Of a stretch of DNA of 64,000 nucleotides, positions 8,698-64,000 are shown piece after piece. Origin of the DNA: Nymphaea colorata (taxonomy: Eukaryota). Numbering within the stretch: position 1 is the first letter of the stretch; the number at the start of each line of letters is the position of its first letter. The stretch lies in contig NC_045138.2 in assembly GCF_008831285.2 (NCBI RefSeq), positions 17,174,001-17,238,000 on the forward strand. Reading direction: 5' to 3'. The notes under the pieces were generated by a model, which ran no database searches, was not told the DNA's origin, and worked only from the letters and a program-made list of their open reading frames with translations. The position numbers and the translations under genes were made by a program.

Positions 8698-10191
8698 CCT
8701 CTTATGAAGAGTGTTTATTCAGATAAAACTCTTTGGTAATGATCACCATGAATGACATACAATTGCCTCCATCAAACTTAGTATGGTGAGCACTTTTTAA
8801 GATTTGTCTAACTTGAATCAATGACTTTTAGTATCAAGAACCATTCAATACGATTGCAATGACCATCAAATTTCATAAGCACTTTGAACGATTTGTCCGA
8901 CCTGAATGAATCATCAGTCATTCACTCACTCGATGAGCTCTAAAATCAAGTTGAATTTGTTAAAGTTGGATTCAGCCATAACCTGAACTGTTTAAATATT
9001 CATAATCATAGTCCACAACTTAACATATGCACAATTATTGCAACTTCAACTTATAGGTGCAATTAATTCAACTTCAACTTATGGCCCATGAACTAGCTCC
9101 CATGAGCAAATGAAAACGAGATCCAAGGTTCTTTTCGTCACACATTATTATATCTCGACTCTTCGTGTCAAATTATGTAAGTATTGTCACCTCCACACAA
9201 TTAAACAAAATGCAAAAAATAAGGGAAATTTTTAAAAGCACGCTTAAGAATTGGCAGTAATGAAAAACATTACTAAATTTTTCTTATTTTTTAAAGGAAA
9301 TTTAAATTTTTCTATGGTTAGTCAAAGAGATATTGCTTAGCGCATTTAAACTTTTGTTCAATGGCTACTAAAACCATCATGTAATCATGTATTAATATTA
9401 ATGAAATTATAATTTATTTTCACTAGAAGTATTTTGGTTTTTTATCAGCTTTTCCTAAGCTTAAATTAATAATAACCTACCATTAGTAGGCAGATTATCA
9501 TTTTTTACTAATGGTGTAAACTTAGGCGACTTGTTGCGGGCTCCTCCTGAAAATTTACAAAAAGATAATTGTAGCAAAGTTAAATAAAATCCTTGACGCA
9601 TTTGTTTTGAAACTTTAGTTTTTTGCTCCAAAAAATTCTGGCATATATGTTAATGTTAGTGTAAATATGTCAAATAAATTAACCAAACCACTAATTTTCA
9701 CTGCCAATATTATTACAAACATATAAACAAATGGCTTTCATAATACATTAATCCCTTCAGAATCCTATCCGATGCATAATATCACCAGAAACATGCTGAA
9801 ATTTGTGAACTATGATTGTATTTCTCTTTTTGCTTTCGAGTTCCAAAGGGTTAGGCACACCCCTCTTGTTCATTCCGAAATAAGGTGATTTGTGTAAAGC
9901 GATCAGGCATACATCAGAAAACACTGAATCACCCAACATACCCAAGAAATCCGCAACTCCTATTCTAGTTTCTTAATTAGAAGGAAAGAAAAAGATCACC
10001 ATGTTCATGACCATGGTTATTTACACCCCAATAATCCAACCTTTACCCAACACCAACTTTACCTTGTTCAACAGATAGATAATATGAAAAAGAAGAAGGA
10101 AAAATAACATGAGAACTTTGGCTAAATTTTCTTTCTGTCGCTGTCTAATTGCCTAATGATATGAACAACAGAACAAACTCCTGGGTATATT

Positions 10192-10339
10192 GGCAGGAAG
10201 CAGAAGGAAAGAGTAACGAGAAAACTATTGGTATGAGTGGAATAGGAAAGACATAACATTTACAATATGGAGTAAAAAGCGTCTTCCCTATTCCACCTAA
10301 CCTGAGTCTTCCAGAGACTCCTTCCCTCTTCTCACTGCC
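10192..10339 (-). ncRNA. MIR482: miR482/2118-family precursor hairpin 1; predicted mature ~10230-10251 UCUUUCCUAUUCCACUCAUACC (3' arm)
   Basis: The 5' arm GGTTAGGTGGAATAGGGAAGAC (10281-10302) pairs with the mature-like 3' arm and there is an extended lower stem. The sequence fits the miR482 consensus UCUUUCCUAnUCCnCnCAUnCC. Confidence 0.88.
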
Positions 10340-10390
10340 CTTTCTCCATTGCTGCTGCTTGCGTTCTGCTGCTACTGTTGTAACAACAAG

Positions 10391-10541
10391 CAAAAGAAGC
10401 ACAAGGAAAGAGTGAAAGAAAAACCATGGCATGGGTGGTATGGGGAAGCCAAGAGCTCAGTTGTCTGCCAAAAGCATTAATGGCCTCCCCGACACAACCC
10501 AGCCTCCGTTTTTCTGAGCACTCCCTCCCTCTGCCCTTTTG
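10391..10541 (-). ncRNA. MIR482: miR482/2118-family precursor hairpin 2; predicted mature ~10426-10447 UUCCCCAUACCACCCAUGCCAU
   Basis: The 5' arm GGCTGGGTTGTGTCGGGGAGGCCA pairs with TGGCTTCCCCATACCACCCATGCC; flanks AGAAAAAC/GTTTTTCT and a further lower stem. Confidence 0.85.
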
Positions 10542-13148
10542 TCGCTTCCTCTTCAACTCTCTCCACCAAAGCTCCTAACCAGAAGAAGGGGTTAGATTAC
10601 AAGCCAAGCGAGTAAAAGGCCATGGATGGCAGGACAGTGGTTTTGTAAAACTGCTTTAGTTGCCCATGGTTTCAAAGGGCAGCTTCCTCCCGCTGTCCCT
10701 CTTTTCAATTCTTTAATGGGGATGCTCCTGCATGGAAGAACTGGTTTTAATGCGGGTGTTGACTCCGTGCTCGACAATAATGCAAGCTCTGGTGGCCCAC
10801 TGGTCACGGCCATCGAGGCAGCCGAGAAGCTGCCGGGTGGCGGGTGGGTATCCCATTTGAGAAACTCGGAAAACTTATTGAAGTGCTCGTGAATTGCTGG
10901 ATATTTCCGAAGGACTACGCCCAACAATAGTTGGGCACCCTACCATACTGTGGACACGTTTGCTTCCTGCAAATTCAGATAAGGATTTACTCATCTGTCA
11001 ACAATTGATGGGAGGGACGGCGGTCTGTGGGTCTGTATCTGACGCCTCCTAGTTTGACAGCGGAAAAGGCGGAATCTGATTAGATGGTATCTGTTTTTAA
11101 TTGATTTCTAGATATTGTTTTTTAAAATTTCAGACTAATTCGCTGGCTTGGTTGGACTTGGCTAAAAGTGTTAAATAGTTAGTTTCAGAAATAATAAAGG
11201 AAAAGTAAGTAATTAAGTAATATGTAAAAAAATGTTTAACGAAGTTTAGACTATACATGGCCTCCTTGAATCAAACACCGAATCAACCATCAATTCTGGA
11301 CTTATAATAACATTGAGTTAGGCTATATATATGATTTGTAAAGATTACATGGCACCTGAGAAATGGAAAAAGCAGCTAAAGAATGGTTATAAAAGAACGA
11401 CCGTTAGGGCTATGGGCTAAATAAAGTCAGGGGCATGGACTATGGGCAAATGTGTTTTCAAAGTCAGTAATCCTGTTGTGGAAGCAGTGAGCCTAGATTC
11501 CAATGAAATTTTTATAGCATTTTGAACTTTGTTGGTGGCTGCCATTTTTTAGAAAACTTTATAAAATTAGTTGTAAATGAAGGTTATTGCTGTAATTAAC
11601 CATCATATTCGCATTTCTAGCTCTTTTGAGAGTTAACACAAAAAGGTAGGTTGAAGACTGAGCTAGCGGCTCATTGAGGGGGCATTTGATTGCCCTTGTT
11701 CTAACATCCTCACGATTTGAGAATAATGGATTTAAGATCAAAACTCTACTTTCTCCTATCTTATCAACTTGATGTTTCTTGTATAGTTTTTCACACTTAC
11801 TAGTATGATTAACGGACAAGAGATGAGAGATTAGTTCCTCATACTATCAATTTGTTCTCTTCGCTTTCCGGACATGAACATTTTGATGCTGCAAACTGAT
11901 AGAGATTACCTTAACCTCAGCTTTGTTTATCATTGGATTAAAATGCGTCTGTTGTCAAACATAAACTGCGACAAGTGTCTACATGTGAATTAACCACAGC
12001 TTAATTTTTTTGCAGGCTTAGAATTGTGTGTTTGATTGGAAAGAGCTTCATTGGTTACCAGGGAGCCTTGCCTATCTACCAATTCTATAAATGCTTAACT
12101 TGATCGTGAAAACCAACGGAGCTAAATCAAGTTACCCATTATGTCGTTGTTTTATGTTTGGTACACATCTCAATCAATAATTTTCTTGCCCAGTGATTCT
12201 TGGGTAATGGATGTGATGGAAACTAGTAGGCAGCTGCCCAAACGCTCTCTTGTTTGGCGGTAGGATAAAATACTCTACTAGATGCACAGTATGAACCAAA
12301 AACGTACTTATACAGAACAATCAAACTGACCTAGCTGGAATAAGCTCACAACGCCTGAATGTGGGCTTGGCCAGTCTAACTCAGCGCAAGGCTCTCATTA
12401 CCGCGCAGACCATGCTTCTAAGTCCCATTAACCGGGTTTTTAAACCTTTGTATGGAATAAGTTTAACCTATGTGACTCAAAACTCAAAATTTCAAGACCT
12501 GTGAAGATGAAGTAGGATGTAACCAAAGTTGAAGAAGGGAAATAGTTACCAAAGTTTGATTATCTTACAATGTCTTTTCTTATCCCTTTTTATCTGTTTC
12601 TTCATCACTTATGGTGTGTTTTGGCTGCCACAAATGTCATTTTTCAATTTCAGAAAGATACGGAGAGAGTGGGGGTTAAAGACCCTTCAATCAAAATCTG
12701 TTTGCTTCTTGGCTCACATTTCCTATTTTTGATATGTACATGGCGGAAATTTATCCTCAAGCACCAATCTTCTGTTTTCATTTCCACGCAGAAGATAACT
12801 AAGAGCCAGCCTTTGCTCAAACATGGTGCAAAATCAACTGATCTTTAATAAAAAAATAAAAATAAAAATAAAAATTAAGCAGCCTGCTATTTTCTTATAC
12901 TCAGCAAATCTTCGTTGAAATCCATGTCTAAATGGCTTTTAGGAGCCGTGGAAATCCATTGAGCAGTCCTATATCACCCTTCTCAGTTGGTCCAAAAGTG
13001 ATCAATTTCCAAAGGATCAGTCATGTTATGTCACAAGTTGAAGAAGATGAAGTTACGAGAAAACATCTTTCTAAGTAACAATACTATGCATAAATAAGCC
13101 ATATTTGAATTAAGGAACATACCTTTGCAGCATCAGGGTTCCTCCATC

Positions 13149-13594
13149 TTGGCAAGGAGTAGAAGGAAAGAATTATGAGAAAAGTTAGGAATGGGTGGCA
13201 TTGGGAGGGTTCACGACCCAACTTCCACGAAGGCAAATCAGGTTTAGTGAGCAACCTTTCTAAAATAAAGCACTACCAGAGATCACACCGTTTTTTGTAA
13301 CAAAAACACTGCATTAGTGTTTCATAAATCTGTCCCAAAAATTGAGGCAGATTCATGAAACACTGAATTCCAGTGTTCCATGAATCTACCCCAATCTTTG
13401 AGGCAGATTCATGAAACACTAATGTAGTGTTCATGATATGAAATGCGTTGTATAGTTTCTAACAGTCCTTCATTTGAAAGAGATCACTCACCAAATTACC
13501 TTATTTTCCTTTGAGTATTTTGAGTGGAAGAGCATCTTCCCAGTGCCACACACCCTGGATTTTCCAATGACTCTTTCCCCCTGCCACATGCCTA
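13149..13594 (-). ncRNA. MIR2118: miR2118/482-family precursor hairpin 3 (long fold-back); predicted mature ~13186-13207 CUCCCAAUGCCACCCAUUCCUA
   Basis: The mature-like sequence closely resembles canonical miR2118 (UUCCCnAUGCCnCCCAUUCCUA). The 5' arm (13534-13594, GGCATGTGGCAGGGGGAAAGAGTCATTGGAAAATCCAGGGTGTGTGGCACTGGGAAG) pairs with 13149-13210 over ~60 nt. Confidence 0.8.
13305..13431. repeat. Nested palindrome (four alternating ~25-bp units), MITE-like, at the apex of hairpin 3
   Basis: aacactgcattagtgtttcataaatctg...cagattcatgaaacactg aattc cagtgttccatgaatct...cagattcatgaaacactaatgtagtgtt. Confidence 0.8.
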
Positions 13595-13648
13595 ATAACA
13601 TATCAAAAAGGTTAAGGAGCCAAGAAGCACGAACCATGGCTAAAGAAA

Positions 13649-13758
13649 GAAGGAAAGATTGATTGGAAGACTACGGAATTGGTGGATTTGGGAAAACAAG
13701 ATTTGTGTTGTCTTTTCCAATCCAACCAAACGCTACTTTTCCAGTCTCTCTTTCATTC
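13649..13758 (-). ncRNA. MIR482: miR482/2118-family precursor hairpin 4; predicted mature ~13673-13696 (UU)UUCCCAAAUCCACCAAUUCC(GU)
   Basis: The 5' arm GTTTGGTTGGATTGGAAAAGACAA pairs with TTGTTTTCCCAAATCCACCAATTC across a short loop; lower stem CTGGAAAAGTAG/CGTAGTCTTCCAA. Confidence 0.82.
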
Positions 13759-15496
13759 CCAGTTTGCACATGTAACTGGGCAAAGTCATCAGGTAGAGGA
13801 AAAAAAAAAAAACACAGGGAAAGTAAAGAGGATGAAATTGAAGGAGCCTCCTGGAGGAAGCCATTGCCATTGTTGATCTCATCTGGTACCCATCTGCAAG
13901 CATGAGCCTCACATTTATCAGCAGAAGAAAACAGCTCATCACAGCCCATTGGTTTACCAATACCGCTAACTTGGCAGGTGTCGGATTCAATTCTTCTAGT
14001 TTACAGCAGTAAAAAGGTGAAAGAAAGCATCAATAATTGAATGTTACTGCTCATTGGGATGCTATACTTGACTTTGACTAAGCATCGGCGATGGTGGCCT
14101 CACATCACAATGCGTTAATTTAGTTGATATAAAGCGCTGGCATACCCAGAAGGGGCATTGAGATTCGGTCTCAGAATGGAACTTTGGTGCAATCCCCAGT
14201 TAGTTTGGATAAGGGATGCCAATGGCGTGGATATAAGAAAAAATTACATATCGATGTAGTAAAAATGGTAGAAGGCTTTTGGAAAGGAATACGATGGGTG
14301 CCTCAAATGGCTTACAGTGGTAGTTGGGAGAAGGTACTGTGGAACGTTGAGTCTTCGTTTCAATTCTCGTGACTCGTGGGTGTTAGGTTCTCGGGCCATG
14401 TGGAATGGGTTCCGGTACCTACCTGATGTGAAAATGCATCAGTATCATGTCTAATGCTGAAAGCAGATCAAAACCAAGAAAGGTTTGGGGTTGCTCTTTT
14501 TGTGGCAGTAAGTCGTAACCTCTTGTTCATACAGAAGGAATATGATAGATATTCATAATTACCAAAATTCCGATGTGATTACATCTTAAACTTTGGATGT
14601 GTTTTTCATCAAACTAATCAATATCCAGATACTCGAACATGGAACTGGTTATCTCTGATTGGAACTCATCTGCTTAGTTTGAACTTCGGATTTACAGTCT
14701 TCCAAGCCATATTTAAAAAGGGACTTTATTTTGAAACTAACGTTCTTTTAACATGATTTTTTTAAATATTTATCATTATCTCAATGAAAAGGGGATATAT
14801 ATATATCAAAACACTAACACGGCCATTGTGAGGACATGCATTAAAAGCTGGATTTGATCTTTTGAATGTACTTTCTGTCTCATGTTAGTCGGCTTTGATT
14901 ACCTTCATGTAGTAATAGAGAACGAGCGCCTTACAATTCTCGAACAATGGCCATTTTAAAATGGACCAGTAAAACATATTAAGCTCCATTTTGTACTTAG
15001 ATTGCCATGGTTAAACAGGTAACTCATCTTCAGAAATTTCCCAGCACCAACACAACTTTTGCAAATAATTGTCAAAAAAGAAGTGTCAGGTTGCACCTTC
15101 AAAATGACTAGCTCTCAACTTATGGAAGTTGGGACCTCGGAGACTGGAGAGATGCTTCAGCTTGTAAGCAAATTGCGAGAAAAGTTATCTCAACTATAGC
15201 TAAAGCAAATGGTTTGCATTCAACTATAGATCAATTATATACATATTGAGATTAATACTCAAAGACAAAGCAATTTCAGCAGGAAAATTTAACTTCCAGA
15301 ACAAAATTCATTACATCAGGGAAATAACCTTTGACAGAGTAGCCCATGGTTCTAGGTTAAACTCTTCACGCCCATCAATATATATCCCATAATTAGAAGC
15401 GACACAAAACTGTCCTAAATCCAAGCAAAAGCTATGAAATAGACCTTCGTCACAATCGATAAAGTCCAACGAAGAGACAACATAATTTTGTTCTTA

Positions 15497-18080
15497 TTAA
15501 TCCTCCTCCAAATTGATGGAGTCCTTGAATTTTCCATACAGAATCTTCTTCAGATCGGCCATCTGCAATAATACCGAGGACTTCTCATCCTCCAGCTTCT
15601 CCAAATTCTTACCGACCTCCTCTTTCATCTTTTCCAGTCTATTCTCAACATCTTCCCTTGGCATGTGAGTGAAAACCTCCCCCATTTGGAACCTCACCAT
15701 GTCTTCATCTGACAGAATCAGCTCATTGCTGGCATCCTCCAGGTTCTCACTCATTTCCTATAGACAAAGTGAACCGGTCAGTAGATAAATGGGTCTCATT
15801 CAAAGATGGAGAGCAACAAAGGGAACAAAATAGCATGAGATTGTTTTATAGTATAGGCACACAAACACGAAAATGCTTCCTCATCCTGAAACAAAGAGCA
15901 ATAAAGAGACAGTAAGATAGCATGGTGTACAGTTCTCGATAGAATAGGCAGAAAAACAAGAAAATGATTCCTCATCCCAACTGCACCAAAATTTGCAAGC
16001 TTTGTCCTTGGATGATATCAAATGCACCTGAAAATCTTGAACCAATTAGTAAAATTTTTGCACAATCTGCAGTTAGTTGCAACAAAGCATTTTATATTTC
16101 ACCGGTTACAAAGATTAAGGCAGGGAAGTGCTTTGTATGACTGCAATGCCCCTATAGCCCATTGAAAGGACAGATACGATGCCTCCTATGAAAGAATCCT
16201 CTACTCCAACTTCCATGAGAAAAGGCATGACAGCTTACTACAAGGTTTGCTTAGGCAGCCATTCTCACTACACAAACCAATAAAAATTTAAAAAACAAAT
16301 AAAATAAGGCTTAGGTGAAAAGAGATACTTCTCTCCTCAGGATGCTGAATTGCTGACCTGTTTTGCATATCTCCACTATGCTTCATGGACCATGTCCACA
16401 TCTAAGCGGGAAGCGGAGACAGTCACCAAAGTTACTAAAAAGCTATTGGGCACATTCAACCGCAATAAGTTAGTGTCATGCTGCTAACCACAAAATCCAC
16501 TTTAGCAGGGACTCATAGGGGAGACTAGAAGAGTTGAAACTTGAACCTAGACCTAGTGCAGGACCATGAGGAGGCTTAGAAAGAAGGTATTTGGAGAAGC
16601 TTTGAAATCTAAAGGTAATCACTTCCAATTTTGGATAACCTAGAGCAATGGTGCAGTTGAGCTCCTATCACTTGTAAAATTAAGAACTATAGGACATAAA
16701 GCACAGACAGCGCTCCTGTAGCAAAAGGATTGGAGAGAGAATGAGATACCTTCTATTTTCTTACTGCATCCCTAGTTGAAGTCTAAGTTGAGGATAATGA
16801 CTTGTTCTCTCTTAGCCACAAAATGTTACAAAATGAAGCTAGTGAGCTGCTGATTTATATTCAAGTAATCTCTGTTCGGGTAAGTGCCCTACTTAGTTTG
16901 GGTTGGCAATTATGAATGTATAGGTATGGTTATGTGCAAAGGCTATTTATAATCTGGACGTATATGATTATGTATGTGTAGTGCAAGGAAGGAAAATGAA
17001 CTGATCATTCATAATTAGCAGGACTGCCTCTGTCCATAAATTTTTCAAGTACGTATCTAAAAACAGAAACAGGCTCATGCTTGGACATCTATGCAGTTTT
17101 CAATGAGTATGTTATGATCTGATCGTAAATATATACACATATATATGTTGCAAGGGTGTAGAGAGAGAGAGAGCTAGTGCAGTAACTATAGTAGATTAGA
17201 GTGTTGGTGGACTGTACTTGAAGTACACAGATCCATAGGCAGATTGGGTGAGCAGACCTTATAATTTTTTCATGTATGAGAATATTTAGACCGAAGTGCA
17301 GCATGTAGTTCTTGTATGTTGTTGTGTTTAGATGTATACAAAGATATCTAAATGCATACATATATGAAATAGAATATATATATATATATAGAGAGAGAGA
17401 AAGATGCATTCAACAATATGTCAAGTTAAACATTTATTTGTTAATGAGCATGGAATAATGTTGTTTATAATAACATGTTATGATAAAACTGTGCAATGCA
17501 TAATTCTATGAGGCATGCCTACTAGCTTAAAGAAAATAGAGATGAGATAACATCGTTCTTATATGAATATATATGACAACCATGTGAAAATATCAGAGAT
17601 AAGATAATATTGTTCTTATATATATATAATACATATATGACAATCAGATGGACATATCAGAGAAGAGATAATATTGTTCTTGTATGTATGTATATAACAA
17701 TCATGTAGACATATCAAAGAAGAGATGATGTTGTTCTTCCATGTATATATATATCAACCATATGGGTATATATCAAAGATGAGATAATGTTGTCCTTACA
17801 TGTACATATATGACAACCATATGGACATATCAGAGAAGAGATAATATTGTTTTTATATGCAAATATATGACAATCATATAGATATATCAGAGATGAGATA
17901 ATACTACTCTTACATGAATATATATGACAACCATGTGAATACAACAGGGATGATATAATATTGTTCTTATATGTATATATATGACAATCATATAAATATA
18001 TCAGAGATGAGATAATATTGCTCTTACATTAATATATATGACAATCATGTGGACATATCAGAGATGAGATAATATTGTTG

Positions 18081-18129
<49 letters not shown>

Positions 18130-19149
18130 ATAATTACATAGATATATCAGAGATAAGATACTTACTTGTTGTTCATACATGTATATCCATGGCATAAATT
18201 TGTGCACGTTAGAGTTGAAATAATGTTGTTCTTACGCATATATATATTAGGCAACCTTCTGTGCATGTTAGAGTTGAGATAGTGTTGTTTATACATATTT
18301 GTATACATGTCAACTGTATGAACACACTAGGGCAGAGATAATGTTGTTCATACATATGTATATTCAGGAACACATGGACAATCTTATGGATTTGAGCATC
18401 AATAATGTTGTTCATAAAAATGTTATATTGCGGGTGTAAATGAAACGGGTGCCTAGAGGGGTGTGTTTAGGTTGAGTGGTTGGACCATGTTGTTGCAGCG
18501 ATGATCTGGGATATCTCAGGAGGTTTTACTACAGGTTACTCTTGGTCTTTGTAAATTGTCTAGTGAATATTGATTTTATTCTGCCTATGTTTGTGCCCGC
18601 AAGGATTTCTGTTGATGCACGTCACTATAATCATGTTTGGTGGTGGTTAGACTATTGGTGTATCTTAGTCACCCACAATGGATTGTGTTACTACATTTAT
18701 GGTAGTAAACTTAGCCTTGGATTGACTTAAAGTTTCAAGTCACAGACAGTAGTTTGAGCTGCATGCTAGTTTTTGTTTAATATAACTACATATTTATTTT
18801 GTCGAACCATGCTCCACCTATGGTTGGATATTGTCATACTCAAAGCAATCTGACCCCATTTCCCTTCTATCTCTACAAGTAGTTCTTGATTGACTGATGG
18901 CTTTTGGAGGAACTCCTTCAGTTTTGCGACGGACTAGCATTGGCGATCTAGGCATTGAGTCAAGTTTGGGATTTTTTGTGACTTCATTTTCATCGAGTCG
19001 TTGTAGTCTTTTGATTGGGCTCTACACGGGTCCTTGACTCTTTGGGACATTGTTCTCCTTGTTGGATTTGTTTTTGTTTGGTAATTACCCAAGATTTGAT
19101 TTGACTTTTAAGACTTGATGTTCGTTCTGCAATACATTTATATTTTCTT

Positions 19150-19203
<54 letters not shown>

Positions 19204-20801
19204 AAGAAAAAAGAAAAAAAAATTGTGTCAAAACTTGGGTCGTGACAAGAACACTACCTCAAACACAGATCTCAATATCGCTTGGTATAGTATACGAAGC
19301 AAAATTCATGCAGCAGGAGAGAGACAAAAGGTCTCACAAACTAAAGCACGATTGAACAAACAAAGAAGCCCTTGGTAAGCAGCACATATGCAATGTTAAA
19401 TGCAAAAACGAACATAATCTTCTAGAACCAAGGGGATCACAAAGGAAGCAAGAAGGATGAAACGAAAGTCATCCATGTTTAATACTAAAGAGCTTAATAA
19501 GAACCATCCGTGACCACACCTCTTCAACTTAGGAGGAACTTCGTGGCATTCCATGTCAATCCAAGTAGATTTTGCTCTCGAAGAGAAACCAAGTTTCCTT
19601 GATTCAATTATTATGCTTACTTCTTTTTTTTTCTTTTTGTTGCTTCTCATTAAGAGTCTGAAGACCAGGGGATAAGATTCAACAGTGCAGCCACAAATAA
19701 TTTAAAATGCTGCAGACATTGCAATCAATGTGGATACTATCAAGAAACAGGAAAATAGTTTATCATGAATCTGCATCGGGCCTAATTAAGCTAATCTTTC
19801 TTCTAATGTAGCTCTCCAGAAATCCAAAATAAAATTCAGGAAGAATCAAATGAAAGGGAAGTAGTTCCAGTAGCTCCAAGGGCATCAACCTTGTAGGCAG
19901 TTGTACTTTTGTCATATCACTGGATCTTAAGTTATTCAGAGTTTTGATGTGGGGAACATAGTTCATTCTCCAATGGTTAATTGACAAATCGATACAGTTT
20001 TGAGAGTATGTTTTATGATCTAATTTTGTAGCAAAGAGCAATTTTCGTAATTAAATGGCAAGTTTAACAGGTTAATCTTGTGGCCAGTTAAAACTGACAC
20101 ATCAACATTAGACCATGAATGCATAAGAGATTTCTTCTTTTCATAGCTACGGACTAGCCCACAATAGACAAATTATGAAATGGAAAATGATCGGTACAGA
20201 TGGATCTTCATCAACAATTTATTTAAATGGAAAACTGTGCTGCTGGAAATGGTTTTATTCCCTAACTGCGGTGAATCATAGGCCCGATTCTTAAATGGCC
20301 TGAGACGAGAATCTCAGGAAGGAGACCATCGAACTCGAGTGCACAAGAAACAGAGACGGGTACCCAAAACTTTCCTCAAAAGACCAGTTTCAGACGCTAA
20401 ACGACACACGCTAATTCGGATATCAAAAAGAAACTGATGGTTCCCAATATCTTCACAAAGAAGACGAAAGCCCACACACAAACAGCAACCAGAACTAAAT
20501 GCGCATAAAAGAAAAGCGAACAAAGAACTCAAAAGGAAGAATATGGAACCTTGCTGGCTTTGATCTCATCTTCAAGCTCGTGGAATCTGCTGTTGAGTCT
20601 ACCAAAGCGGTTGATGTTCTGCTGGTCTTCCCATGTAACCTCGGCCTCCACTCCAGAACCCTAAAATCAGAATGTAAACCATGACCTTCCGCAAATAATT
20701 AGAACGAAAAACAGGATTATTTCTTGCCGGTTTGCATGTTGGTACTTGTAATTTTGAATCTGAACATCCTAAGCTTCATATTTAACATTCACCTGCTGCA
20801 T
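15497..20801 (-). CDS. PFD4: Prefoldin subunit 4, 126 aa. Exons 20793-20801, 20550-20660, 15497-15757.
   Basis: Spliced product [59 protein letters not shown]...[18 protein letters not shown]; canonical splice sites. Confidence 0.95.
17538..18415. repeat. ~57-bp minisatellite (about 10 clear units plus degenerate ones) with an embedded (AT)n, in PFD4 intron 2
   Basis: Consensus cagagatgagataatattgttcttacatgaatatatatgacaaccatgtggacatat. Confidence 0.9.
19152..19200. repeat. (AT)n microsatellite
   Basis: Pure AT run. Confidence 0.95.
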
Positions 20802-26200: not shown

Positions 26201-29200
26201 TCATAAAGATAGGTACAGTTTGAAATTGTTTTTGACAGAGGATCAAGGAGGAATAATAATTAAATCGATGTAAAGAATTCGTTTCTACATGGAAATTTTT
26301 AGTGTACCATGAACAGCCCTACAAATATGTTTATGTAGACCATGTTGCCTATGTAAATAAAAAAGGATCTATTTATGATTTAAAGCGACCCACATGTTCA
26401 TGATTTGAAAGTTTTTATCAAAAATTCGAAAATATGGATTTATTCGTTCACAACTTGATTATCTCTTTTCTATTTCTGAGAAGAAAAAACGTGTGAAATT
26501 TTTTTCGCATATACATGGATGATATGATAATAATAGGAACCCTAAATAGAATATTAAGATATTAAGGGTCTTTTTAAGAAAAAAATTTCGATTGACGGAC
26601 CTTGGAAAGCTACAATGTTTCCTTGAAGCTGCAAATGACAGGATGGAAGATAAACTTGTTATGAGTTATGACTCAACAGAACACACTTGATTTGTTTGCC
26701 AAATTTGGTATGCAGGATTGCAAACCTGTAGCTACTCCAACTCCAATTCATTAAAAATAAAGTGAGAATGATGGAGAAGTATATTAGATCCTACCAATAA
26801 TCGAAGCGCAGTTGGCATTGACCTTCACTAGAGCATACATCGACCACATAATCAATCGGAAATCGCATTTCATGCACAAACCAAGAATTGTGCACATGGA
26901 ACCCATTAAAGGATTTTATGATACTTAATGGCACAATAGTAAATGGCTTTATTTATGAGAGAAGAAAGCAAAACCATGATATTTAATATTGTCTGCAAAT
27001 TCAGATATGGATTAGGTGGTGATCTAGATGAGAGACGAATCAGTATCTGAATACTATATCTTTATTAAAGGGAAACCTAATTTCATGAAGCAGCAAAAAC
27101 AAAAACGTAGCACTACGTCAAGTACAGAAGTAGAATATCGAGAAGCGGCATCAGCTGAATACAAATTAACTTGAGGATGAACTTGGAAAAATTTTACCAA
27201 AATCAGTTCTTTATTGTGACAACTAGATTGCCATTTAGAATTCATTGAATCTCATACAACAAGGAGAACAAAACATATTGAATGGAGCAGCATTTCATTA
27301 GACAAAAGATTGAACATTAAAGACCAGAAGCAACATATATTGGCAAAGAGAATCAAATTTCCAGGGGCGAAGGGAGGGGGGGCCCACCTAGGCCGTGGCC
27401 CCACCCCAACTAATTTAAAAAAAAAAAATTACATTACAAAAATTGAAATTTTTTGGTTGAGTAATGTATCTTTTAGATTCGGATTTAATTTGGCCCTACC
27501 CAGATTTAGTTTGGCCCTACCCGAATAAGTTTGATGGACCGTTTGGCCCGCCCCTGAAAAAAATCCTGGCTCCGCCCCTACAAATTGCAAACCATATTCA
27601 CAAAAAGACTAATAATTGAGGAGTCTCTAGTTCCTTAAATCAAATTGAGCATGGTATAAAGGTACGCACAACTTGAGGGAGGTGTTAAGATGTGCTTATT
27701 TATATTGTATCTTGCATCTAATAACGCCCTTTTTTCAAACAAAACACAAATAGTGCCATTTTATAGCGTCATTCATTATCTAGACATATTACTTAAGGGC
27801 AGTTTAGTCTTTAGTGCCCCAGTATATCTTATTTAGAGAACTTGCCCATTGCAGAAGCAATTGCTCACACATCTCTTCTACTGAAATCTGGTTCGGATCT
27901 GCTCACCTCTTCCTTTTTTAAGCATATAATTCAAATGCTAATATGAACATACTTTGTTTTCAGGAATTCTGAGGAAGGAATTCTCAAGATTATTTTTTGA
28001 GCATAGTTATGCAACCCCTTCATTTATATCACAAGAAAACCTCATTATAACTTGTACTTCGCATGATAAAACTTTTCTTAGCAAGAAAAATTCAAAATAC
28101 TGCTTCAAAGATATGATATGATATGTTTGAATAGAAAAGATGACAGACACTATAGAACCAATGAAAATGCAACAACCTTAAAGATGGTTCAACTATTCAA
28201 AAAATTAATTACCAATGCATCTTAGATCAGCCAATGAACAAATGAAAGACCAGATGTAAAGATGAACCAAACTGTACAGCATGCCAGAGATCACAGAAAC
28301 TATAACAATCATGATGAAGAATTTTAGAGGACAGATGATGAACCTGCACAACTTACTTTATTCTTAAATAGCACGCAGAAATTTGTGGCAGAGCCTCATC
28401 TCCTTCCCTGAATCAACCAAGCAACAAGATAGAAAAAAGAAGAGTTAGTAGACCATAAGAACATTAAAACCATGATCACAAGAGCGCTTTATCAATAGTA
28501 TTTTCTGGACGCATTTGTCATTATTGGAGTAATAAGAGAACTGTTCTCACTGGTTATCAGAAGCCACAAGGGAGAACCAAACATGACTTATTTTCTTTTC
28601 ACGCTTCAAGCAGGAAGGAGTAACCATGGGTTGAGATGGGATGCTTATCTCCCTCGACATAGCTGCTCGCTTCCGGCTAATCCCATGAAGCCTTCTAGCT
28701 TTACCCAACCCTGAACGTGCAGAAGCAGTGCCTTTTTTATCATCCTGAAGTTTTGGTTTACGAGCATGCTCCTTAAACTTGGCCTTGTGAACATTCACAC
28801 CACTATCGGGGTTGTCAGCTTGCTCTGCCTTGACAGAAGAAGCTTGAAAGTTTGACTTAAATGACTTCGACCTAGTTGCAGCCTCTAACAGACAATTCAA
28901 AGGTTTCCAAAGACCAGATTTTCCAAGCTGCTGCTCTGCTCCATTCTCTGTATTGATATTACAAACGTAGTTTGATGGCTCTCCATTGGATGGATTCTGC
29001 CAAAAGATTTCAAGGTAAACAGTTAACATATACTTTTGACAATGTAGTCGACAAAGAAAATAACCTTATTCATTAACTATAAAAGAAAAAGAACTCCATT
29101 CCTAAGAGAGAAAACAGCATAGAAATAAGCAAACATGGTAAAACCTCATCTTGTTAAATTGTGCAATACTAGAAATCTCACTTCAATAACTCCAGTTCCT

Positions 29201-32135
29201 TTGCTATATAAGAGTAATTCTGTAACAAGTTTTTGGTTGAACCTGATGAAAAGTTTCCCTGAAAATTCTGGTTAAAAGAAATCATTCCAATCCCATTATA
29301 TATTATGTAGGCATAATGTGATATGAGGAAACCATGAAAACATGGACATAGAGACTTTTAGAGCATAGAAATGTAAGAGAGAATGGAACCTGTGTCCTCC
29401 AATGTCGCTTTGAACAATAAATAATGGCTACTACAAACTTTCATGCCAATTAACATATGCTATTAGCAGACCATTCCCTTACTTACCTGCCTTTGTGTGA
29501 TTGTGTCTTGGGTCTCATGAGAACATGAGCTATCATGATGGTCTTCTGCATTTTCTGCTTTGATTTTTACAGGTTCGTCTTTGGCAAAGTTCGACCCACG
29601 TAAAGAAGCAGCTTTTCTAGCAATAGATTTAGTTCTTCTCCCAGTTAAGCCAGTTTGTGTTGTTACACGTGGGGTACTAATAACCAATGATGAAAGAGAC
29701 CTCTCCTTTCTCCTAACAGGCAATGTAATGGAAGGCACAATATCTGCTGCTTTGCCCTTGCTTCCTTTGAGAGGAAATATTTTGTTTCTCACATCTTGCA
29801 AATTATGATCTGGCCTGAATAAGGATTCAGTCATTCAGTAGCGTTATTCAATGCAAAAATAAGAAATGGGATATAGTATCCCAAATCAATTTATTTACAA
29901 CTCCAACAGAAACAGTCTCCAATGAAAAAAAAGTTATGGTGCAACCACTCTATGCAGGGCTAATCACATCCTAAAAGCTAGGGCAAATGTGACTCAGTTC
30001 CAGTCATTTCATGCAAAGAACTCATAGTGGTATTCACCAATTCAAATGCACTGACTTAAAGAAACAGATTGTCAAACAGAGACACATACTAAGTACTGAT
30101 AAAATTGTTTGACATTGATAGTGTGAAACAAACATAAACTAGATTCAGATGGAGAAGATTGAGGCCAGATGATTACGTGTAGTGTGGTTACGGATGAAAT
30201 GTTGGCAGTTCCATGTAAGACTGGACAATGAAATGTCAGCCAGACCAATTCTATTTATGCAGCAAGGTGACATAAGTAATGATGTCTGGCTTGTAAACAT
30301 CAGAAACAATTTAATCAGAGAAAAATGAGGACTACCAAATCACAACATTAAATTAGAAATCAAGTGCACACCTAATAATTAATATGTGAATGATTTATTT
30401 AATGACCTCTAGGAAAAGGACATGATATCAAGCAATGGTTAATCCTCATTTCAAACAGAAAATCAAAACGCTACACCCTTTTATTTTTCACCATCGTTGG
30501 CTAAGATGGAGATAGAGAAACAATTATCACAGTTCTTCTAGTCAAGAAAAGAAAACACATTTGGCATTGCCTGCAAAGTAGTAATTATTCCATACTGACA
30601 TAGTTCTAAGGTTGGTAAAATAAGTATCTGGATCAGTTAGTGATTATACCTTCACCATTAAAAAAAAAAAAAAAACATTTTATTTAACACAAAAAAAATG
30701 GTAACTCCCAAGTATAAAATTTTGGAAGGAAAGATGTTGAAATGAAATCCTTAAGAAAATACCCAAATCAAGGGGACTGTCATCGCAATAAACGTCTAAG
30801 CAGAATGTTTCTCAAAAGTTACTTGTGAGTACAGATCTAATGCCTCAAAACTTGGAACTTAGGGACCAGTTTTGAGAAGGATTCAAGGCTCGCACGAATG
30901 AAAAGGAACCCAACAAGATGAATTGACAATATCACATAAGAACAAATCAATTACATTCTAAACAAACAAGATAGAATGACAGAGCTACCTGAGTTTCTCC
31001 ACAGGAACACAACCGAGATCAGTGTTGCAAATAGGGCAGCAGTCAACCTCCTCATCAGTGAGTTTCTCATAAATACACCTCCTGCAGACTACCACATTTG
31101 AAAACAAAAACGTGTCAGACACAACACTAGAAGCATTTTACTGATACACTACCCAGAAAAAAAACTTTGCCAATTGAAAGCAGAAGTAAAAATAAGCATG
31201 ACCAATAAATGACAACTACAAATCACCAATTCTGACAAATACATGCCCATTCACGTCTGGCTGTCAAGCTGTGTCATCCAAATTAATTATCTTCTGCATC
31301 CAAGTGCAATTTTCTCCAGCCGCTTTGACCAAAGATAGAGAGACACAATGAGGATCTCATCTTTGAGATCCAAAAGTAACTAGATATAGAAAGTGAAAGT
31401 GTTTACACCTGTCTTAGTGTATGCTATATTGCTATATGATTGCAGTTACCGCAGATATGTCCAAATTCTCCTATAAGCCTACAAGTCGGCTAACAAAAAA
31501 TACGCCCTGTTTCCATGCCAATCCCAAAGTAAATCATCAAACTTACGCATTTTTACTTCATTATGGACTTGACTTCGCAGGTTCATAAAGAATCATCCAC
31601 ACCCGTTTCATTACTTATGGACCTTTAAAAAGTCAAAAAGAAAGAAAAAAATTTACATTAATTTCACATTGTTTCTTCAGCGTTTCTGCAGATAGGATAA
31701 CCCAACTTTCTTCATGTTGATTACAATGAGTCTTCAAATTTTTCACGCCACATGGAGACATGAACGTCACTATTTCAACTGCGGCTCACAAACTACACAT
31801 CCAGGGCCACCGATTCACGAGTGCATGCCATGCATATGCACAATATAAACATAAACGTAGATCCAATACGGATTCGTGCACTTCTGCCGTCCGCGTGCAT
31901 AAGCACAGAGAGAGAGAGAGGCTCGTACAGATCAGCAGCTTATTTATGCAGATATTAGAGTAATCGAGTAGAAGAATAAATCAAACTGACTTAAGGAGCA
32001 AGAGAGACCCAGAATCTTACAAGTGTGAAGGCATTCCGAGATGGTGGTGGCTTCTCTGAGCAGTTTCTTGCAAAGAGGGCATGTCATGCAAGCTGCAAGG
32101 GTCACCCTCCGGACCTTCACCACCTGGTTCATCAT
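23240..32135 (-). CDS. DRIP2: DRIP/BMI1-type C3HC4 RING E3 ubiquitin ligase (PRC1 component), ~428 aa. Exons 32021-32135, 30989-31088, 29487-29814, 28551-28996, 28357-28407, 24952-25024, 23240-23413.
   Basis: RING CPLCKKLLREATTISECLHT|FCRRCI...CPIC; LRPDHNLQDVRNKIFP; RRKERSLSSLV; LWKPLNCLLEAA; C-terminal RAWUL-like WFSLVAS...LPQISACYLRIK|DGNIPVSFIKKYLVKKLDL...VMVLAYAR. Phases are consistent throughout; the exact DRIP1/DRIP2 paralogue is not resolvable. Confidence 0.93.
26040..27935 (+). mobile_element. Decayed Ty1/Copia RT-RNaseH fragment with PPT and the start of a 3' LTR, in DRIP intron 5
   Basis: Frameshifted relics resembling ARLVAKGF..YDETF (~26135), DVKNSFLHG (~26265), YMDDMIIIG (~26510), SKKQ..SSTEVEYR (~27090) and RTKHIE (~27265); PPT TTGAGGGAGG followed by TG at 27683. 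Outer ends are approximate. Confidence 0.85.
27362..27580. mobile_element. hAT-type MITE nested in the Copia relic
   Basis: TIRs CAGGGGCG...CGCCCCTA; 8-bp TSD caaatttc/caaattgc. Confidence 0.85.
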
Positions 32136-43040: not shown

Positions 43041-46000
43041 TCAACTCCCAACCAGACCTTTGTATCGAGCATATGAAACGATAAGGGAGAACAGCAACAA
43101 ACAACCAACTCCAGAAAGGATAACCACCTATTAAATGCACAATATGATTAACATTGTCGAAAAGCAAAAAAAGTACAAAAAAACTGATAATAGAACTTGG
43201 CAGTTTACCCATTTGAACATATAGCCATGATCATCGTTCCATGTATAAGGGATATTCATGCCGAAAATTCCAGCAACCAATGAATATACGGAAAGGCAAA
43301 CCGTGCCAGAACTTAGGAAGAGCTCCAGCTGCCATCAATACAACAGAGGCAATTTGAGAATATGATACACTAATCCACCAAAACGAATGATCATATAAAA
43401 AGAGCCACAAAGCAAATGTGAATTGACAAAGTCAAATTGGTTTCTTTAAGCACTGGTAACAGGTATATTTCTTTATTATAAAATGATGTGACATGGGTAC
43501 TTCCAATGATCCACGTCATGCAAGCACTTTTGGGTGTAATTGCTGGGAGCTTCTAGGAACTGCCATAATATCCAGGCTATATTTTATTATACATTGCACA
43601 CACTTTATATGCATATGCTTTTTTAGACATATTTCAATGTTATCCAATGCCGTTAAACCATCACAACCAGATGTCACTTTATCCCTTTCTGAAAAATAAT
43701 TGCTTAAATACAATGTATGAAACATAGACGATGCAAACATGTAGACAGTTATATCAGATGATAGAGGTACTCAAAGCAATCACCTGAATCAGCTGGTTCC
43801 GATGATTATCAAGCTGGAAAACATGGCAAAGAGAAGGTTTAGTCTGGAGACTTGCATGGTCAAGACAAAGGCCATTAAGACAGCCAATTACCTGGATGTT
43901 GATGTAGTCTTCTGTATCATCGATGTATTCACGCAGCTGCGACGTACAATGGAAAATTGTGCGTTACACATGAACATAAGTGATGGAGATGATACATGAT
44001 ATAAGCCTTGAAAATATATTATTTAGCAAGAAACAAGTCTCTTAAACAAAACTCCCCAAAGTTGTTCATAGAAGCTGAAGGAAACAATGCCATCGGCCCA
44101 TCGCTACTTATTTAACAAAAATTAGTTTAGCTACTCTATGGTGCTTTCCACCTTCCAAGCTCAGTCATGCCTTAAACTCTCAAAATAGTCGAAGACTGAA
44201 AGCTGTAGAGATTTTTCCTTTTTCCTCTTTCATAATTGAGCTTACAGATCTAGCTTTGACATAAGCATATGATCTCAAAAGGGCCATTCTGAAGAGGATT
44301 ACTACTTAAAAATATACTAATAACCTCAGAATCGTCTAAAGTGTAACAGCCCATTCCTTCTGTGTTCTTTTTCTCCACCGTCAACTATTTTTGACATGCA
44401 AGAACATCATGCAAGTAAGAAACTCATTCTACATTCTTTGTGCATGCCATGAAGCAAGACGGTTAGCCAGAACAGTTTTTCAAAACGTCAGATTCCCAAC
44501 TTGATTATTGGAACACAAGTAAGCAGAGATGAAGCAGATGGGCCAACTTATAAATAGTAAACTCCAAGTCTTTAAGTCCAAGAATGAAAGCAATCAAGAG
44601 CAATGGAGCACAACTTTATTCACAATGCACAAATAATCAACCTACCACCTTTTTTTCATATCTTGACAGGCAAAACTTTGCTGACCTAACAATTGGCCAT
44701 CACAGAAAAGAAACTTTATAAGGAAATGGCTTATCAGTGATAAGATAGGTTCTTGATTCCATTACATTATCAGGCTCACAAAAAGCCAACAAGACTTTGG
44801 CAAGTTGAGAATCGATGTAGGCTGTCAAAAAATTGATAAAACAAAAAAAATTGATAAAGGAAATATAATTATACTCTTTGCTCCTGGCTAGACAAGATGT
44901 TCCTGCTGTTCCCAGCCTTCATTAGAAAGCACCAAAAAGTAAAGGAACAATAACTAAGACACATACATGCACACACACATTCACATATACAAATCCAAGA
45001 AACAAACTGGCATGTGCATGGGCATTTTATTCTACTTGTTAGTTATTACAGGAGTAGTGCTCACCGTGGTAAGCCTGTTAAGTGTGCCATCAATCTGCAT
45101 AAAGTATGCCTGCAAATGGCCAGATTTTTTGTTTAAACAACACAAGGAATTGAAAAGAGAAAAAGAAATTCAACATATGGATTGATTTTCTTTTAAACCA
45201 CAAAAAGGGATTGGAAAAGAAAAAATAATGCAACAACTTTTGACCTCGAGTAACATCTCAAGCTCCTCAATATCATTTTCATTCCCATGAACCGTTGCAG
45301 CACTAACACGGCTAGCCCTAGATATTTTCGAAGCAATTGTAGGAGAAGCAGGAAACCAGTTTGGTGCACCGGAGCCACTGATGGGAGAAGTTGCACCAGC
45401 TGATTTCCTTGTTAAATAAAGATCTGCCATATCATCATCATCATCCAATAGTTGTTCAAGTTCATCTCTGACCTGTGAACAAAAAGCATTGGGTAGTGGA
45501 CAGAAGCTTGTAAGGGGAGAAAGTTCACTCCAAAGGAGATAGAAATCAAAGCATGAAAGCCATGTGATTCATAATTTTGAGACTAGTATTACATGAAATT
45601 CTAATTTTTCATCTAAAACTAATCTCTGGAATAAACAAAATAGCCAAGAGCCTGACCAAGTCTATTCTTGAAAATTCATCTTCAGCATCCCAGTTGATGC
45701 AAAAAGACACAAGCTTCAGGACTGCAAACCTAACCCCAAAGGAGTGGACAACAGAAACACCATTAGCAAACACCACACCTTTAATCCCACCTATCAATGC
45801 CATTCATGATTACATTCTCTTAGCCCTTGTATAAAGCTCTTTGGGTTCCAAAATCTCAAGTAGTCTAACTAGTCATTTGAGTCGGATACTGACCGACCCG
45901 CTAAGCCACATGGGTGCCAGTACAGATGTAGGTGTAAGTACAGCAGTGCAGGTGTGCAAATTGTAAAAATATGGGTACAGAGGTATGGGAAGGCATAGAT

Positions 46001-49000
46001 ATAAATTAAAATTAGACATTTAGTTTTCATGTTGTTGCTTATTTTGTAATATACCTGTGCTTTATAGACTCAGTAAAAGTTGAGGATGCTTAAGAAAAAT
46101 TTTAAACAGTTAATAGAAAGGGAAGTTTAAAGGTGATGAAAGGAAGTAAATCCTTCCCTCCCCAAACTCTCTCTTTCTCTCTCTTTTGAGTCAGCTGACA
46201 CTGTCGAGGTATCTTTAAAAGCTTCTAACATTTACATTTTGGATCAGGTCTAACCCAAACCCAATCCAAAATATAGCCAATTGCCCTGTCGCACCCTGTC
46301 TCTGAAAGGGCATACCTACATGAGTACGGCAGGGTAAACCTTGTACCCATGTTACTTAGCCAACCAGTGTTTCAAACCGGTGACTAGTTGGTCCGACTAG
46401 TTAACTAATCAGCCTACTAGTTGGTCATCCAATTAATTCATGAAATATAGATATGTGCATTTTTAGTTGGATATATATATTTTTCTGCACTTAAGCAAAA
46501 GCATATAAGATTATGTATTTATAGTCAATCAACTTGGACCAACGAATCCCAATCAGCCATTTTGGGGTCTTGAATAGCTTGGGTCCGACTTCCGATTTTG
46601 ACAACTTAGCATAGGATGTATTGACTACCAATTATCACAAATGCTGTGAAAATCAATTAAACTTCCATAGCGTTTCAAGTTTTAGCTCCTCCATAGAACT
46701 CCTAGTTACATAAAACTGACATGAAACATGGCCACACCTAAAGGTGATTTGAACAATGAAGACAACCTTACATTTCAAATTCTCACCTAATATTAGATTC
46801 AAAATACTTTGATCATAATATACAAATATTCTTGGCTTTATAGTATGAATATGAACCTTTCATTTTCCGCATTTGCTTTGCTGAATCCTATTGTGGCCAC
46901 ACCTAAAGGTGATTTGAAAAATGAAGACAACCTTACATTTCTAATTCTCACCTAATATTAGCTTCAAAATGCTTTGATTATAGTATAGAAATATTATTGG
47001 CTTTATAGTATGAATATGATACTTGATTTTCTGCATTTGCTTTGTTGAATCTTACTCTGAATCTGTCATTAACAACAAGAGATTTGTTAGGAGTTACAGG
47101 AAGCATCAGGTGGAAGATAGACCTACAGTTGACAGAAATGAAGAGCTCCTAAGCTTCAAGTGATTTGTTAGGGAGAGACAAAGTCACAAAAGGAACTTAA
47201 GCTTCTTTTTCTAAATGCAATTTTACTTACCAACAATATCTTAATCAGAACAGTAAGTTAACTACAGTCTATCTTGGGGTTCAAACGTTAGTCACATATT
47301 GCATCCTTTGCCAGAAATAGAGGGAGAAAAAGAGAGAAAGAGATCTGAAAAAATGTTGAAATCCAAAAGTTCCTTCTATTCATCAAGAAAAACCTTAACA
47401 CCAGCAACTCAGGAGCCTATGACCTAAAGATTTAATCATCATTTATTGAGAACGAGAAAAAACCTTTTGAACACGACCAGTCAACCTTGTCATAGCACTC
47501 TTCAACTTCCTCACACGGTCCAAGTTCCGGCTGCTAATCTGCACAAAATCATATCCATTGGCTTTGAGAGTGCAAATAAGAAAATCAAGAACTTTTCAGT
47601 GGAATCTTCTTTAGATAGGAATAGATGGTTTCTCCATCATGAAGTAACAAAATGATACTGATTGGCTTCCACAGTGCAACTAAGAATACCAAGATGTCCA
47701 CACTGGAATTTTCTTTAGGTAGGAATAGACAGTTTCTCTGTCATGAACTAGGATGAAATGATACCCACTGGCTTAACGAGTACAAATGAGAAAATCAAGA
47801 ACTCCATACTGGAATCTTCTTTAGATAGGAATAGACAGTTTCCCCATCATGAAGTAGGAAAAAATGATACCCATTAGCTTCCACTGCACAAATGAGAAAG
47901 CCAAGTATTCCATTACTGGAACCTTCTTTAGATAGGATTAGACAGTTTTCTCCATCATAAAGTGGAACAAGAAATTGGTTGAGAATGGAGACATAATTCA
48001 CGTCTTTCTAGACCAGAAGTCTCAACAACATGGGTCAAGAAAGGTGCTGATGGCTGAACTGGAAAAGTTGGTGGCTTCTAAGCTCTATTATATTCTTCCC
48101 AAAATGTATAAATTAGCCCATGTTCAACAAAACAAAACACAGTGTCATAAATTTTCCTTCTCATCCGGAACATGAATCTTGAACATCTTACAAGCAAATG
48201 CCCATAAAATATACAAGAAAATGCATATGTGTGTGTGTGTGTGTGTGTGTGTGGAAACTAAAGCTTCATTGACATGTATCTCTGAACTGGATTCTAACAG
48301 CTACCAATCCTAATAATGCTGACTACTGTGTCTATATCTCCTCTCCCCTTCCTGTTAAATCATGTTTAACAAGGAAGAAGACTAAAGAGATAGACTAGGA
48401 AGTCAGGATGTCAGGATGTTTTTAGTTGATAAGATCTAGTGTACTCACGCACACACACAAACACATATACTAGGCCCTGACGACCAACAAAGCAAGTTAA
48501 ATTTTGCAGGAGAATCGACAAACCTTGGATGTTAGCTCATCTAAGGCAGGGTAAGCAGCAGTTTCCAGTTCTGTTGTGCGTGCATCAAGGAAGCTGCAGA
48601 TACCTTCTAGTGCAACCTCTAAAGCTCGGAATTCAAATGGAGGTTCTACAATTCAGGATCCAAAATTATCAGGGACTCGTATGCCACATGTGTGTGCAAA
48701 GTTCTTAATGCTCAATGATAACTCCTTGCATCCAAAAATCAGAAGAGGCAAATGAAAAATAATTTCAAGGTCAACAATCATGCATGAACTAATATATACA
48801 AAGAGGGCTATTTCCTCGAGCAAATGGAGTTTGCACTTTGCACACTATTATAACTTTGGATTTTTGTGTTATTTTAGGCTGTTCAGTATTTGACTTTATG
48901 GATGTGACCCAGTGCAGGTTTTCTAGTAGGAACCTATTTTAGGTCACCAACTTTACAACACATACGTAGGCATTCAGAGGACTTAAGAAGTTGGTGGATT

Positions 49001-51176: not shown

Positions 51177-51381
51177 CACATCTCCGACCGAAGACCCTGA
51201 GCTAGGAGAACACCGGAATTTATGGATCCGGAAGGGGTCGGCCCCAAAACCCTACAATCCGCCGGAGGAACGAACCCTAGTCGCCGGAATCGTAACGGGA
51301 AGGCGAATTTAAGGCCGACGGAATCAAGGATAAAGGCTGCGGCAGTCGCCATCGGGAGGGGAGGGCCTCTGGTGGAGGGAG

Positions 51382-63908: not shown

Positions 63909-64000
63909 GTAAGTGTCAAAAGGATTCAATTTCTTTTTTCTTTGATTGTTATTTGCTTTTGAAACGGAATGGATGTTAGTTTCTATGCTATTTATGTTCC

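Follow-up and report, generated by a model that had tools for sequence, protein, structure and literature searches.

A high-copy palindromic repeat in the terminal loop of a predicted MIR482/2118 hairpin of Nymphaea colorata

The window analyzed here, i.e., the whole stretch of DNA under study, comprises 64,000 nt of the forward strand of Nymphaea colorata (GCF_008831285.2, NC_045138.2, positions 17,174,001–17,238,000). Exons and open reading frames are located at 28547–29834, 45170–51251, and 63588–63962, and include exons of a DRIP-like RING E3 ligase. One RING-protein exon has 99% identity to a protein of Nymphaea thermarum and 90% to Victoria cruziana, and the next matches are at 45% or less. 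Some of the reading frames in these three regions presumably encode an MRS2-type magnesium transporter and a galacturonosyltransferase. The window also contains AT-rich repeats. These include tandem arrays at 17538–18298 (periods of 57, with 9.6 copies, and 59), which surround a TA run and have no miRNA-like stem, and two fold-backs found in a hairpin scan, one centered on a TA microsatellite (19020–19320) and one that may be another decayed repeat (53430–53620).

Four hairpins in the window belong, as judged from their sequences, to the miR482/2118 family. Hairpins A (10192–10339; predicted mature miRNA 10249–10228) and B (10385–10546; predicted mature miRNA 10447–10426) are followed by hairpins C (13151–13592, about 442 nt, delimited by the minimum free energy helices and by homology to A) and D (13635–13772; predicted mature miRNA 13694–13673), all assigned to the minus strand. 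Hairpin D has RNA cover and lies upstream of C, likely on the same transcript. At the gathering score, Rfam MIR2118 has no match in the entire window. Hairpins A, B, and D score 18–46 bits (A, 30.2; B, 45.8, with an E value of 1e-06) versus the gathering score of 85, and C has no match at E values up to 10, where a model of 170 positions cannot span the insert described below. The two arms of C can be aligned with those of A (46 of 69 letters on the 5′ side and 46 of 60 on the 3′ side) and D resembles B, suggesting that the cluster likely arose by duplication of a two-hairpin unit, with A + B and C + D as the two copies. Beside B, the region 10600–10720 has a purine/pyrimidine pattern like that of a further degenerate hairpin, with a weak fold (MFEI −0.53 to −0.59).

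The cluster is most likely read from the minus strand, a call that the sequences allow with rather high confidence. On the plus strand, the left arm of all four hairpins reads P-loop-like codons (GMSGIGKT, GMGGMGK, GMGGIGR, and GIGGFGKT), which makes the 3′ arm on the minus strand the likely mature one. The reading GMGGIGR is the complement of the predicted mature miRNA of C, and we take readings of this type to be P-loop codons of NB-LRR genes; the miRNA of C is accordingly predicted to target these immune-receptor genes. By manual count, agreement with the 22 letters of the Rfam consensus is higher on the minus than on the plus strand in every hairpin (C, 19 vs. 13; B, 16 vs. 12; A, 15 vs. 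14; D, 15 vs. 13). The sub-gathering Rfam scores also favor minus for B (45.8 vs. 29.8 bits) and A (30.2 vs. 24.6 bits) but plus for D (21.1 vs. 18.1 bits). Similarly, A, B, and C fold better on the minus strand, whereas D folds better on the plus strand (−53.2 vs. −44.3). Among seven substitutions in C listed from related genomes, one breaks a pair of the minus fold, while four break pairs of the plus fold. Against this assignment, the minus arm of A also reads GGIGKT. A TATA-like GATAAAT on the minus strand (13913–13919), about 30 nt before the position at which RNA cover ends in run X14 (13880), weakly supports a minus-strand start. A TATA-like box near 13089 would suit a plus-strand reading, but this reading was discarded, as RNA cover extends to the left of the box.

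Hairpin C differs from its neighbors in size. The region 13130–13620 folds into a single rod on either strand, with −187.8 kcal/mol on the plus strand (z = −12.0) and −207.9 kcal/mol on the minus strand (z = −13.4), and none of 100 shuffled sequences equaled these values in either case. This agrees with the first-pass annotation, which had proposed a fold-back of about 445 nt with miR and miR* about 325 nt apart; the distance found is 327 nt. In comparison, the corresponding distances are 31, 35, and 16 nt in A, B, and D, respectively, so that the sister loops are short as described, although the range given for them (10–30 nt) was slightly low. The predicted hairpin is approximately three times as long as those of its neighbors because a high-copy repeat sits in its loop. 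When this repeat is removed in silico, a 281-nt hairpin remains (z = −7.2).

The 22-nt mature miRNA predicted for C occupies 13186–13207 on the minus strand, in the family register taken from the alignment of the sisters. This register places a C at position 1 (13207), which is found in C alone among the four hairpins, and shifting the start by 1 nt would give a 5′ U at 13206. The predicted 21-nt miRNA* (13535–13555, minus strand) pairs with three mismatches and one 1-nt bulge. The 3′ arm of the lower stem (13151–13185, minus strand) is 35 nt long and is paired with 13557–13592 at 28 of its 35 positions; the stem below the duplex measures 36 nt in A and 35–38 nt in D, and is longer in B. The plant MIRNA criteria in PMC12594335 allow at most five mismatches, no asymmetric bulge of more than 3 nt, and lengths of 20–24 nt, and the duplex of C lies within these structural limits. 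That source treats a precursor above 300 nt as a warning rather than a failure; the precursor of C exceeds this length, with 370 nt from the duplex base and 442 nt including the lower stem. It further asks for 10 or more duplex reads, a precision of 75%, and 2-nt overhangs. The pairs at 13207–13210 were set by hand, since the minimum free energy fold favors a side hairpin of these positions with 13216–13219 (p of about 0.8), and A–C mismatches are present at 13207 and 13209. The 5′ C and this mispaired junction above the duplex count against full function of C. At the sequence level, the mature miRNA matches the printed Rfam MIR2118 consensus at 19 of 22 letters by manual count, the closest match of the four hairpins. 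Products of this family are 22 nt long and cleave NB-LRR mRNAs or trigger phasiRNAs; for C, a 22/21-nt duplex is predicted. A literature search with the predicted mature sequences of C and B, in RNA and DNA spelling, returned no matching papers. The portion of bioRxiv 2020.04.25.061721 available to us reports miR2118 from N. colorata with fewer than 100 reads and without locus detail.

The first-pass annotation held that the duplex had been preserved despite an insertion, and in silico folding bears this out. The mean pair probability of the duplex core is 0.97 with the repeat in or out, and 0.95 (minimum, 0.75) over 30 shuffled spacers. Formation of the duplex in silico is thus independent of the spacer.

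The spacer consists of two parts. Its outer part is a fold-back with a 3′ arm at 13222–13285 and a 5′ arm at 13451–13530 (both minus strand), which are delimited by pairing and by single-copy depth (for the 3′ arm in all four runs). Positions 13222–13288 pair with 13450–13530, with 39 of 57 aligned letters complementary, a level that none of 3,000 shuffles reached. The self-complementarity noted earlier for nearly the same segments (13222–13282 and about 13454–13530) is thereby confirmed. With the apex deleted in silico, the outer arms give z-scores of −4.8 on the minus strand and −2.9 on the plus strand. The 22 nt just past the star (13514–13535) resemble the loop of sister A, with a score of 18 against that loop, which 14 of 5,000 shuffles also reached, versus scores of 5 and −6 against the loops of B and D, respectively. 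This resemblance suggests that it was the ancestral terminal loop into which the extension was placed. The outer arms may derive from an extinct element or from a local inverted duplication.

The inner part is a 165-bp palindromic element (13286–13450, no strand assigned) with 64% AT, no coding capacity, a strong fold-back (z = −16.9), and uninterrupted helices of 32 and 21 bp. It contains four 23-nt units in alternating orientation within 13316–13420 (13316–13338, 13342–13364, 13372–13394, and 13398–13420), which agree at 19–23 of 23 letters and form two 49-nt palindromes with a period of 56. Copy number was assessed by comparing contigs from three DNA runs of related genomes with 12500–14150. 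On this stretch, the runs gave 721, 539, and 720 contigs, with partial fits accounting for 698, 519, and 690 of them, and 92–94% of the contigs run on into sequence unlike the stretch. Summed depth in the three runs is 1,316–1,691 at 13340–13395, which is not a true copy count, versus about 7–14 in the regions flanking 13284–13451, and the excess depth is confined to 13284–13451. The RNA runs also have loose ends, at 13320–13418. The apex is therefore high-copy, as the check proposed in the first-pass annotation had anticipated for an inserted element. No second copy was found within the window, where one TIR-like motif is attributable to chance, and two metagenome scans found no loci with the element. 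Rfam matches of the apex to MIR5565, MIR1435, mir-2241, and mir-4524 were rejected, as they are below the gathering scores and reflect the hairpin shape.

Other genomic copies match 97–115 nt of the four-unit array, and contig joints that step back 46–106 letters point to copies with more units. Since the array recurs in other copies, the apex is one element rather than a nest. The four units described previously for 13305–13431 thus stand, while the nested insertions proposed along with them do not, the array being a trait of the family.

The ends of the family provide a clue to its identity. Behind 13420, the consensus of the loose ends terminates in GCCAAACAACCCC in all three DNA runs, with a one-letter variant in an RNA run, and the loose ends before 13318 read likewise from the left; agreement within this consensus is only about 0.5. 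Table 2 of PMC6327408 lists an OsPIF2 TIR whose first 12 letters equal the reverse complement of GCCAAACAACCCC. The register of these TIR-like family ends places the element at 13286–13450. At C itself, the ends match the family ends at 18 of 30 letters on the left and 12 of 30 on the right by manual count, although this decay may be overstated because the consensus derives only from copies that differ from the locus. The terminal GGGG/CCCC is absent, and the two ends of the C copy match each other at 11 of 17 letters. No TTA/TAA target site duplication is found at the C copy, which is flanked by TCA and TAT, and a scan of nearby end positions yielded only 3–4-letter repeats at chance level. 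Having neither an intact TIR nor a target site duplication, the C copy is termed a remnant of a Tourist-like family and not an intact member. Based on these sequence features, the apex is likely a fossil of a decayed Tourist-like (PIF/Harbinger) MITE. The earlier idea of a fold-back or MITE-like insertion is supported by the copy number and the PIF/Harbinger-like family ends, but not by a target site duplication or intact TIRs in the C copy. A transposable element origin is supported for the apex but not for the outer arms, which have single-copy depth.

These data also bear on a transposon-free origin, in which successive inverted duplications or template switches at the locus itself would have built up the entire spacer. 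The lack of a target site duplication and of an intact TIR would fit such an origin, as would outer arms that are single-copy and self-complementary. However, hundreds of contigs with differing flanks match the apex, and the family has PIF-type ends, by which this origin is refuted for the apex; it may apply to the outer arms, but for the spacer as a whole, we regard it as very improbable.

Two of the runs compared (X21 and X22) are RNA runs on record, and three others (X5, X14, and X17) are presumed to be RNA. Pieces from X14 define a transcribed block with approximate ends at 12983–13880 that holds both D and C, the minus strand being inferred, and in X5 the cover of this block reaches 12369. 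A sample of 6 in 100 of run X21, which looks unstranded, gave 130 raw reads on the stretch, and these cover 9871–10725 and 12778–13974 with one near-zero bin between. The former region represents a second transcribed two-hairpin MIR482/2118 unit (A + B). Run X5 has one perfect contig at 12369–13643 with a depth of 449, versus 3–6 between the clusters, while X22 has two reads of 12 million on the stretch. Over D, the depth of X5 contigs is 882–1,188 (13614–13812) versus 449 over the contig with C, and a contig branch is present at 13614–13643. Contig depth being flat, this difference is no more than a hint that a shorter transcript exists or that processing occurs between D and C.

If the spacer were mostly removed as an intron, the precursor would be shorter. 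On the minus strand, position 13499 resembles a donor site, and 13309, 13273, and 13260 resemble acceptors, which would permit this. Moreover, X21 has another letter at 13335 in 12 of 12 reads and at 13371 in 10 of 10, mostly from other copies of the repeat, such that no raw read of the C locus crosses the tip; this mismatch may stem from the genotype, from a library bias at a stable hairpin, or from filtering or processing. Nevertheless, no splice joint within the spacer was found in X21, X5, or X14, where the depth of X21 is about 4–12 and contigs drop rare forms, and unbroken contigs from two presumed RNA runs pass through the spacer (12369–13643 in X5 and 13143–13594 in X14). Splicing of the spacer, which had been named earlier as a possible refutation, thus appears highly unlikely.

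The long form of C is present in all four related genomes compared. One contig covers the entire hairpin in X14 (13143–13594, with eight differences and no gaps), as does one in X19 (13065–13608, with 21 differences and four gaps). In X15 both junctions of the element are bridged, and in X13 the right junction is. An empty site in relatives, as would be expected for an insertion, was not found, with no joint skipping the element in any of eight runs. The long form therefore predates lineages that are about 2–4% apart. A fifth relative, X17, has no piece on the single-copy flanks of C and D, which proves nothing given that its records were filtered. This run carries the A/B unit at about 93–95% identity with a 66-bp gap (10001–10066).

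It is conceivable, if rather unlikely, that C is a decaying passenger, transcribed together with D but processed poorly or imprecisely, in which insertions persist because the hairpin is unimportant. The 5′ C, the two A–C mismatches, and the competing side hairpin would be consistent with such decay, as would a length above the 300-nt warning level (PMC12594335), and the three sisters could cover the role of C. The comparison with relatives points the other way. Among the 40 of 164 entries listed, the miR and miR* of C have no changes in four relatives, whereas the mature sequence of D has two (13674 and 13692, in three of the four relatives), which could shift its targets. Moreover, none of the six listed changes outside the element and duplex breaks a pair (chance 0.012, a value biased by the restriction to 40 of 164 entries), and the mature sequence of C is the one nearest to the Rfam consensus.

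On balance, we consider it probable that C is a transcribed miR482/2118 hairpin, likely on the minus strand, with a loop that contains a 165-bp high-copy palindrome, likely a decayed MITE, within an older single-copy fold-back, and that DCL1 would likely still release the miRNA from the base. The terminal loop would first have grown by a fold-back of roughly 120 nt, and the MITE would then have landed at the new tip. Each of the two would pair with itself, leaving the duplex and the lower stem alone. In PMC3787264, MIR472 is reported to be cut sequentially from the base, where a 15-nt stem precedes a cut located 21 nt below the duplex. The 35-nt lower stem of C equals 21 + about 15 nt and fits base-to-loop cutting of this type, which suggests that excision is likely indifferent to the insert and that the insert has little effect on it. 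The first-pass annotation had raised altered DCL1 processing, extra siRNAs, and RdDM at the cluster as possible effects. The first cut would fall about 15 nt from the bottom of the stem (13151:13592), and the second, some 21 nt further up, would reach the base of the duplex. A third cut would free the 22/21-nt duplex, which would target NB-LRR P-loop codons. According to PMC3787264, base-to-loop precursors have variable tops (569 nt in MIR824 and 254 nt in MIR163), and an upper stem that is structured may be cut further. Because this type of processing tolerates long loops, the insertion is probably tolerated cargo rather than a selected feature.

In this model, the freed 327-nt top would be mostly degraded, perhaps with some small RNAs from the 32-bp and 21-bp helices, and small RNAs from the tip are therefore possible. 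A different reading makes the apex the main product, as a hairpin source whose stem is diced into 21–24-nt siRNAs against other copies of the repeat. The uninterrupted helices would suit such a role, the internal array has matches of at least 80% in hundreds of contigs despite the decayed ends, and the repeat is carried by other transcripts. However, all copies of the family are palindromic, so the C copy is not needed as a source; one listed change in an end of the element breaks a pair, and the decay of the ends may appear larger than it is in a consensus built from differing copies. We therefore regard this reading as improbable. A combination of the two outputs is doubtful as well: the base of a single transcript would give miR482/2118 and its tip MITE siRNAs, so that the control of immune receptors would be coupled to MITE silencing, with the array kept while the ends decay. 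If this were true, the tip siRNAs would couple NB-LRR control to hundreds of MITE copies and to MITE-bearing mRNAs.

Returning to the favored reading of a working miRNA below an inserted top, hairpin C may serve as a natural test of foreign dsRNA load in a conserved plant pri-miRNA, for which the three short-loop paralogs, one of them on the same transcript, provide controls. It also suggests a route to long plant precursors through self-pairing elements that land in terminal loops. Loci of this kind exceed 300-nt annotation limits, and their tips would attract multi-mapping siRNAs of transposable elements and thereby lower precision scores. Long tops, MITE-derived MIR genes, and the PIF-driven spread of MIR482/2118 in cotton are already known. 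What appears to be new is that the terminal loop of an ancient MIR482/2118 hairpin holds a probable MITE remnant, which is fixed across related water lilies; neither a MITE in a MIR482/2118 loop nor the C locus itself was found in the literature searched, in which subscription journals are thinly covered. Given the known long loops and MITE–miRNA links, the finding is only modestly surprising, unless functional siRNAs arise from the tip.

Compared with known systems, C shares with the MIR482/2118 superfamily (Rfam MIR2118, RF01911; Arabidopsis MIR472) the 22-nt register, the 1-nt bulge, the complementarity to P-loop codons, and the clustering of hairpins. The lower stem of MIR472 is about 36 nt according to PMC3787264, similar to the 35 nt of C. 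The 327-nt terminal region with a high-copy repeat and the 5′ C set C apart from this superfamily. Like Tourist-like (PIF/Harbinger) MITEs, the apex element is short, AT-rich, non-coding, and able to fold back, with hundreds of copies and OsPIF2-like family ends, while the C copy lacks the terminal TIR letters and the TTA/TAA duplication and has an internal palindromic tandem array. Long terminal regions are likewise tolerated in Arabidopsis MIR824 and MIR163 (569 and 254 nt), which are treated as young miRNAs in PMC3787264, whereas C belongs to an ancient family whose long top came later and is in part a repeat. Giant invertebrate miRNA hairpins (PMC12553114) also combine a conserved miRNA with secondary lengthening, but they belong to the animal Drosha/Dicer system, and the main text of that paper makes no mention of transposons or insertion. 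MITE-derived MIR genes, as described in PMC3086885 and the review PMC10004981, share a MITE hairpin inside a transcribed stem-loop; their miRNA comes from the MITE, whereas the miRNA of C is older than the MITE and lies at least 79 nt outside it. The same miRNA family and transposon superfamily are found together in cotton, in which GosTE, a PIF/Harbinger element, is reported to have spread MIR482/2118d (Shen et al., 2020, as cited in PMC10004981). In that case the element multiplied the MIR gene, whereas in C the element sits within the loop and the gene stays single-copy.
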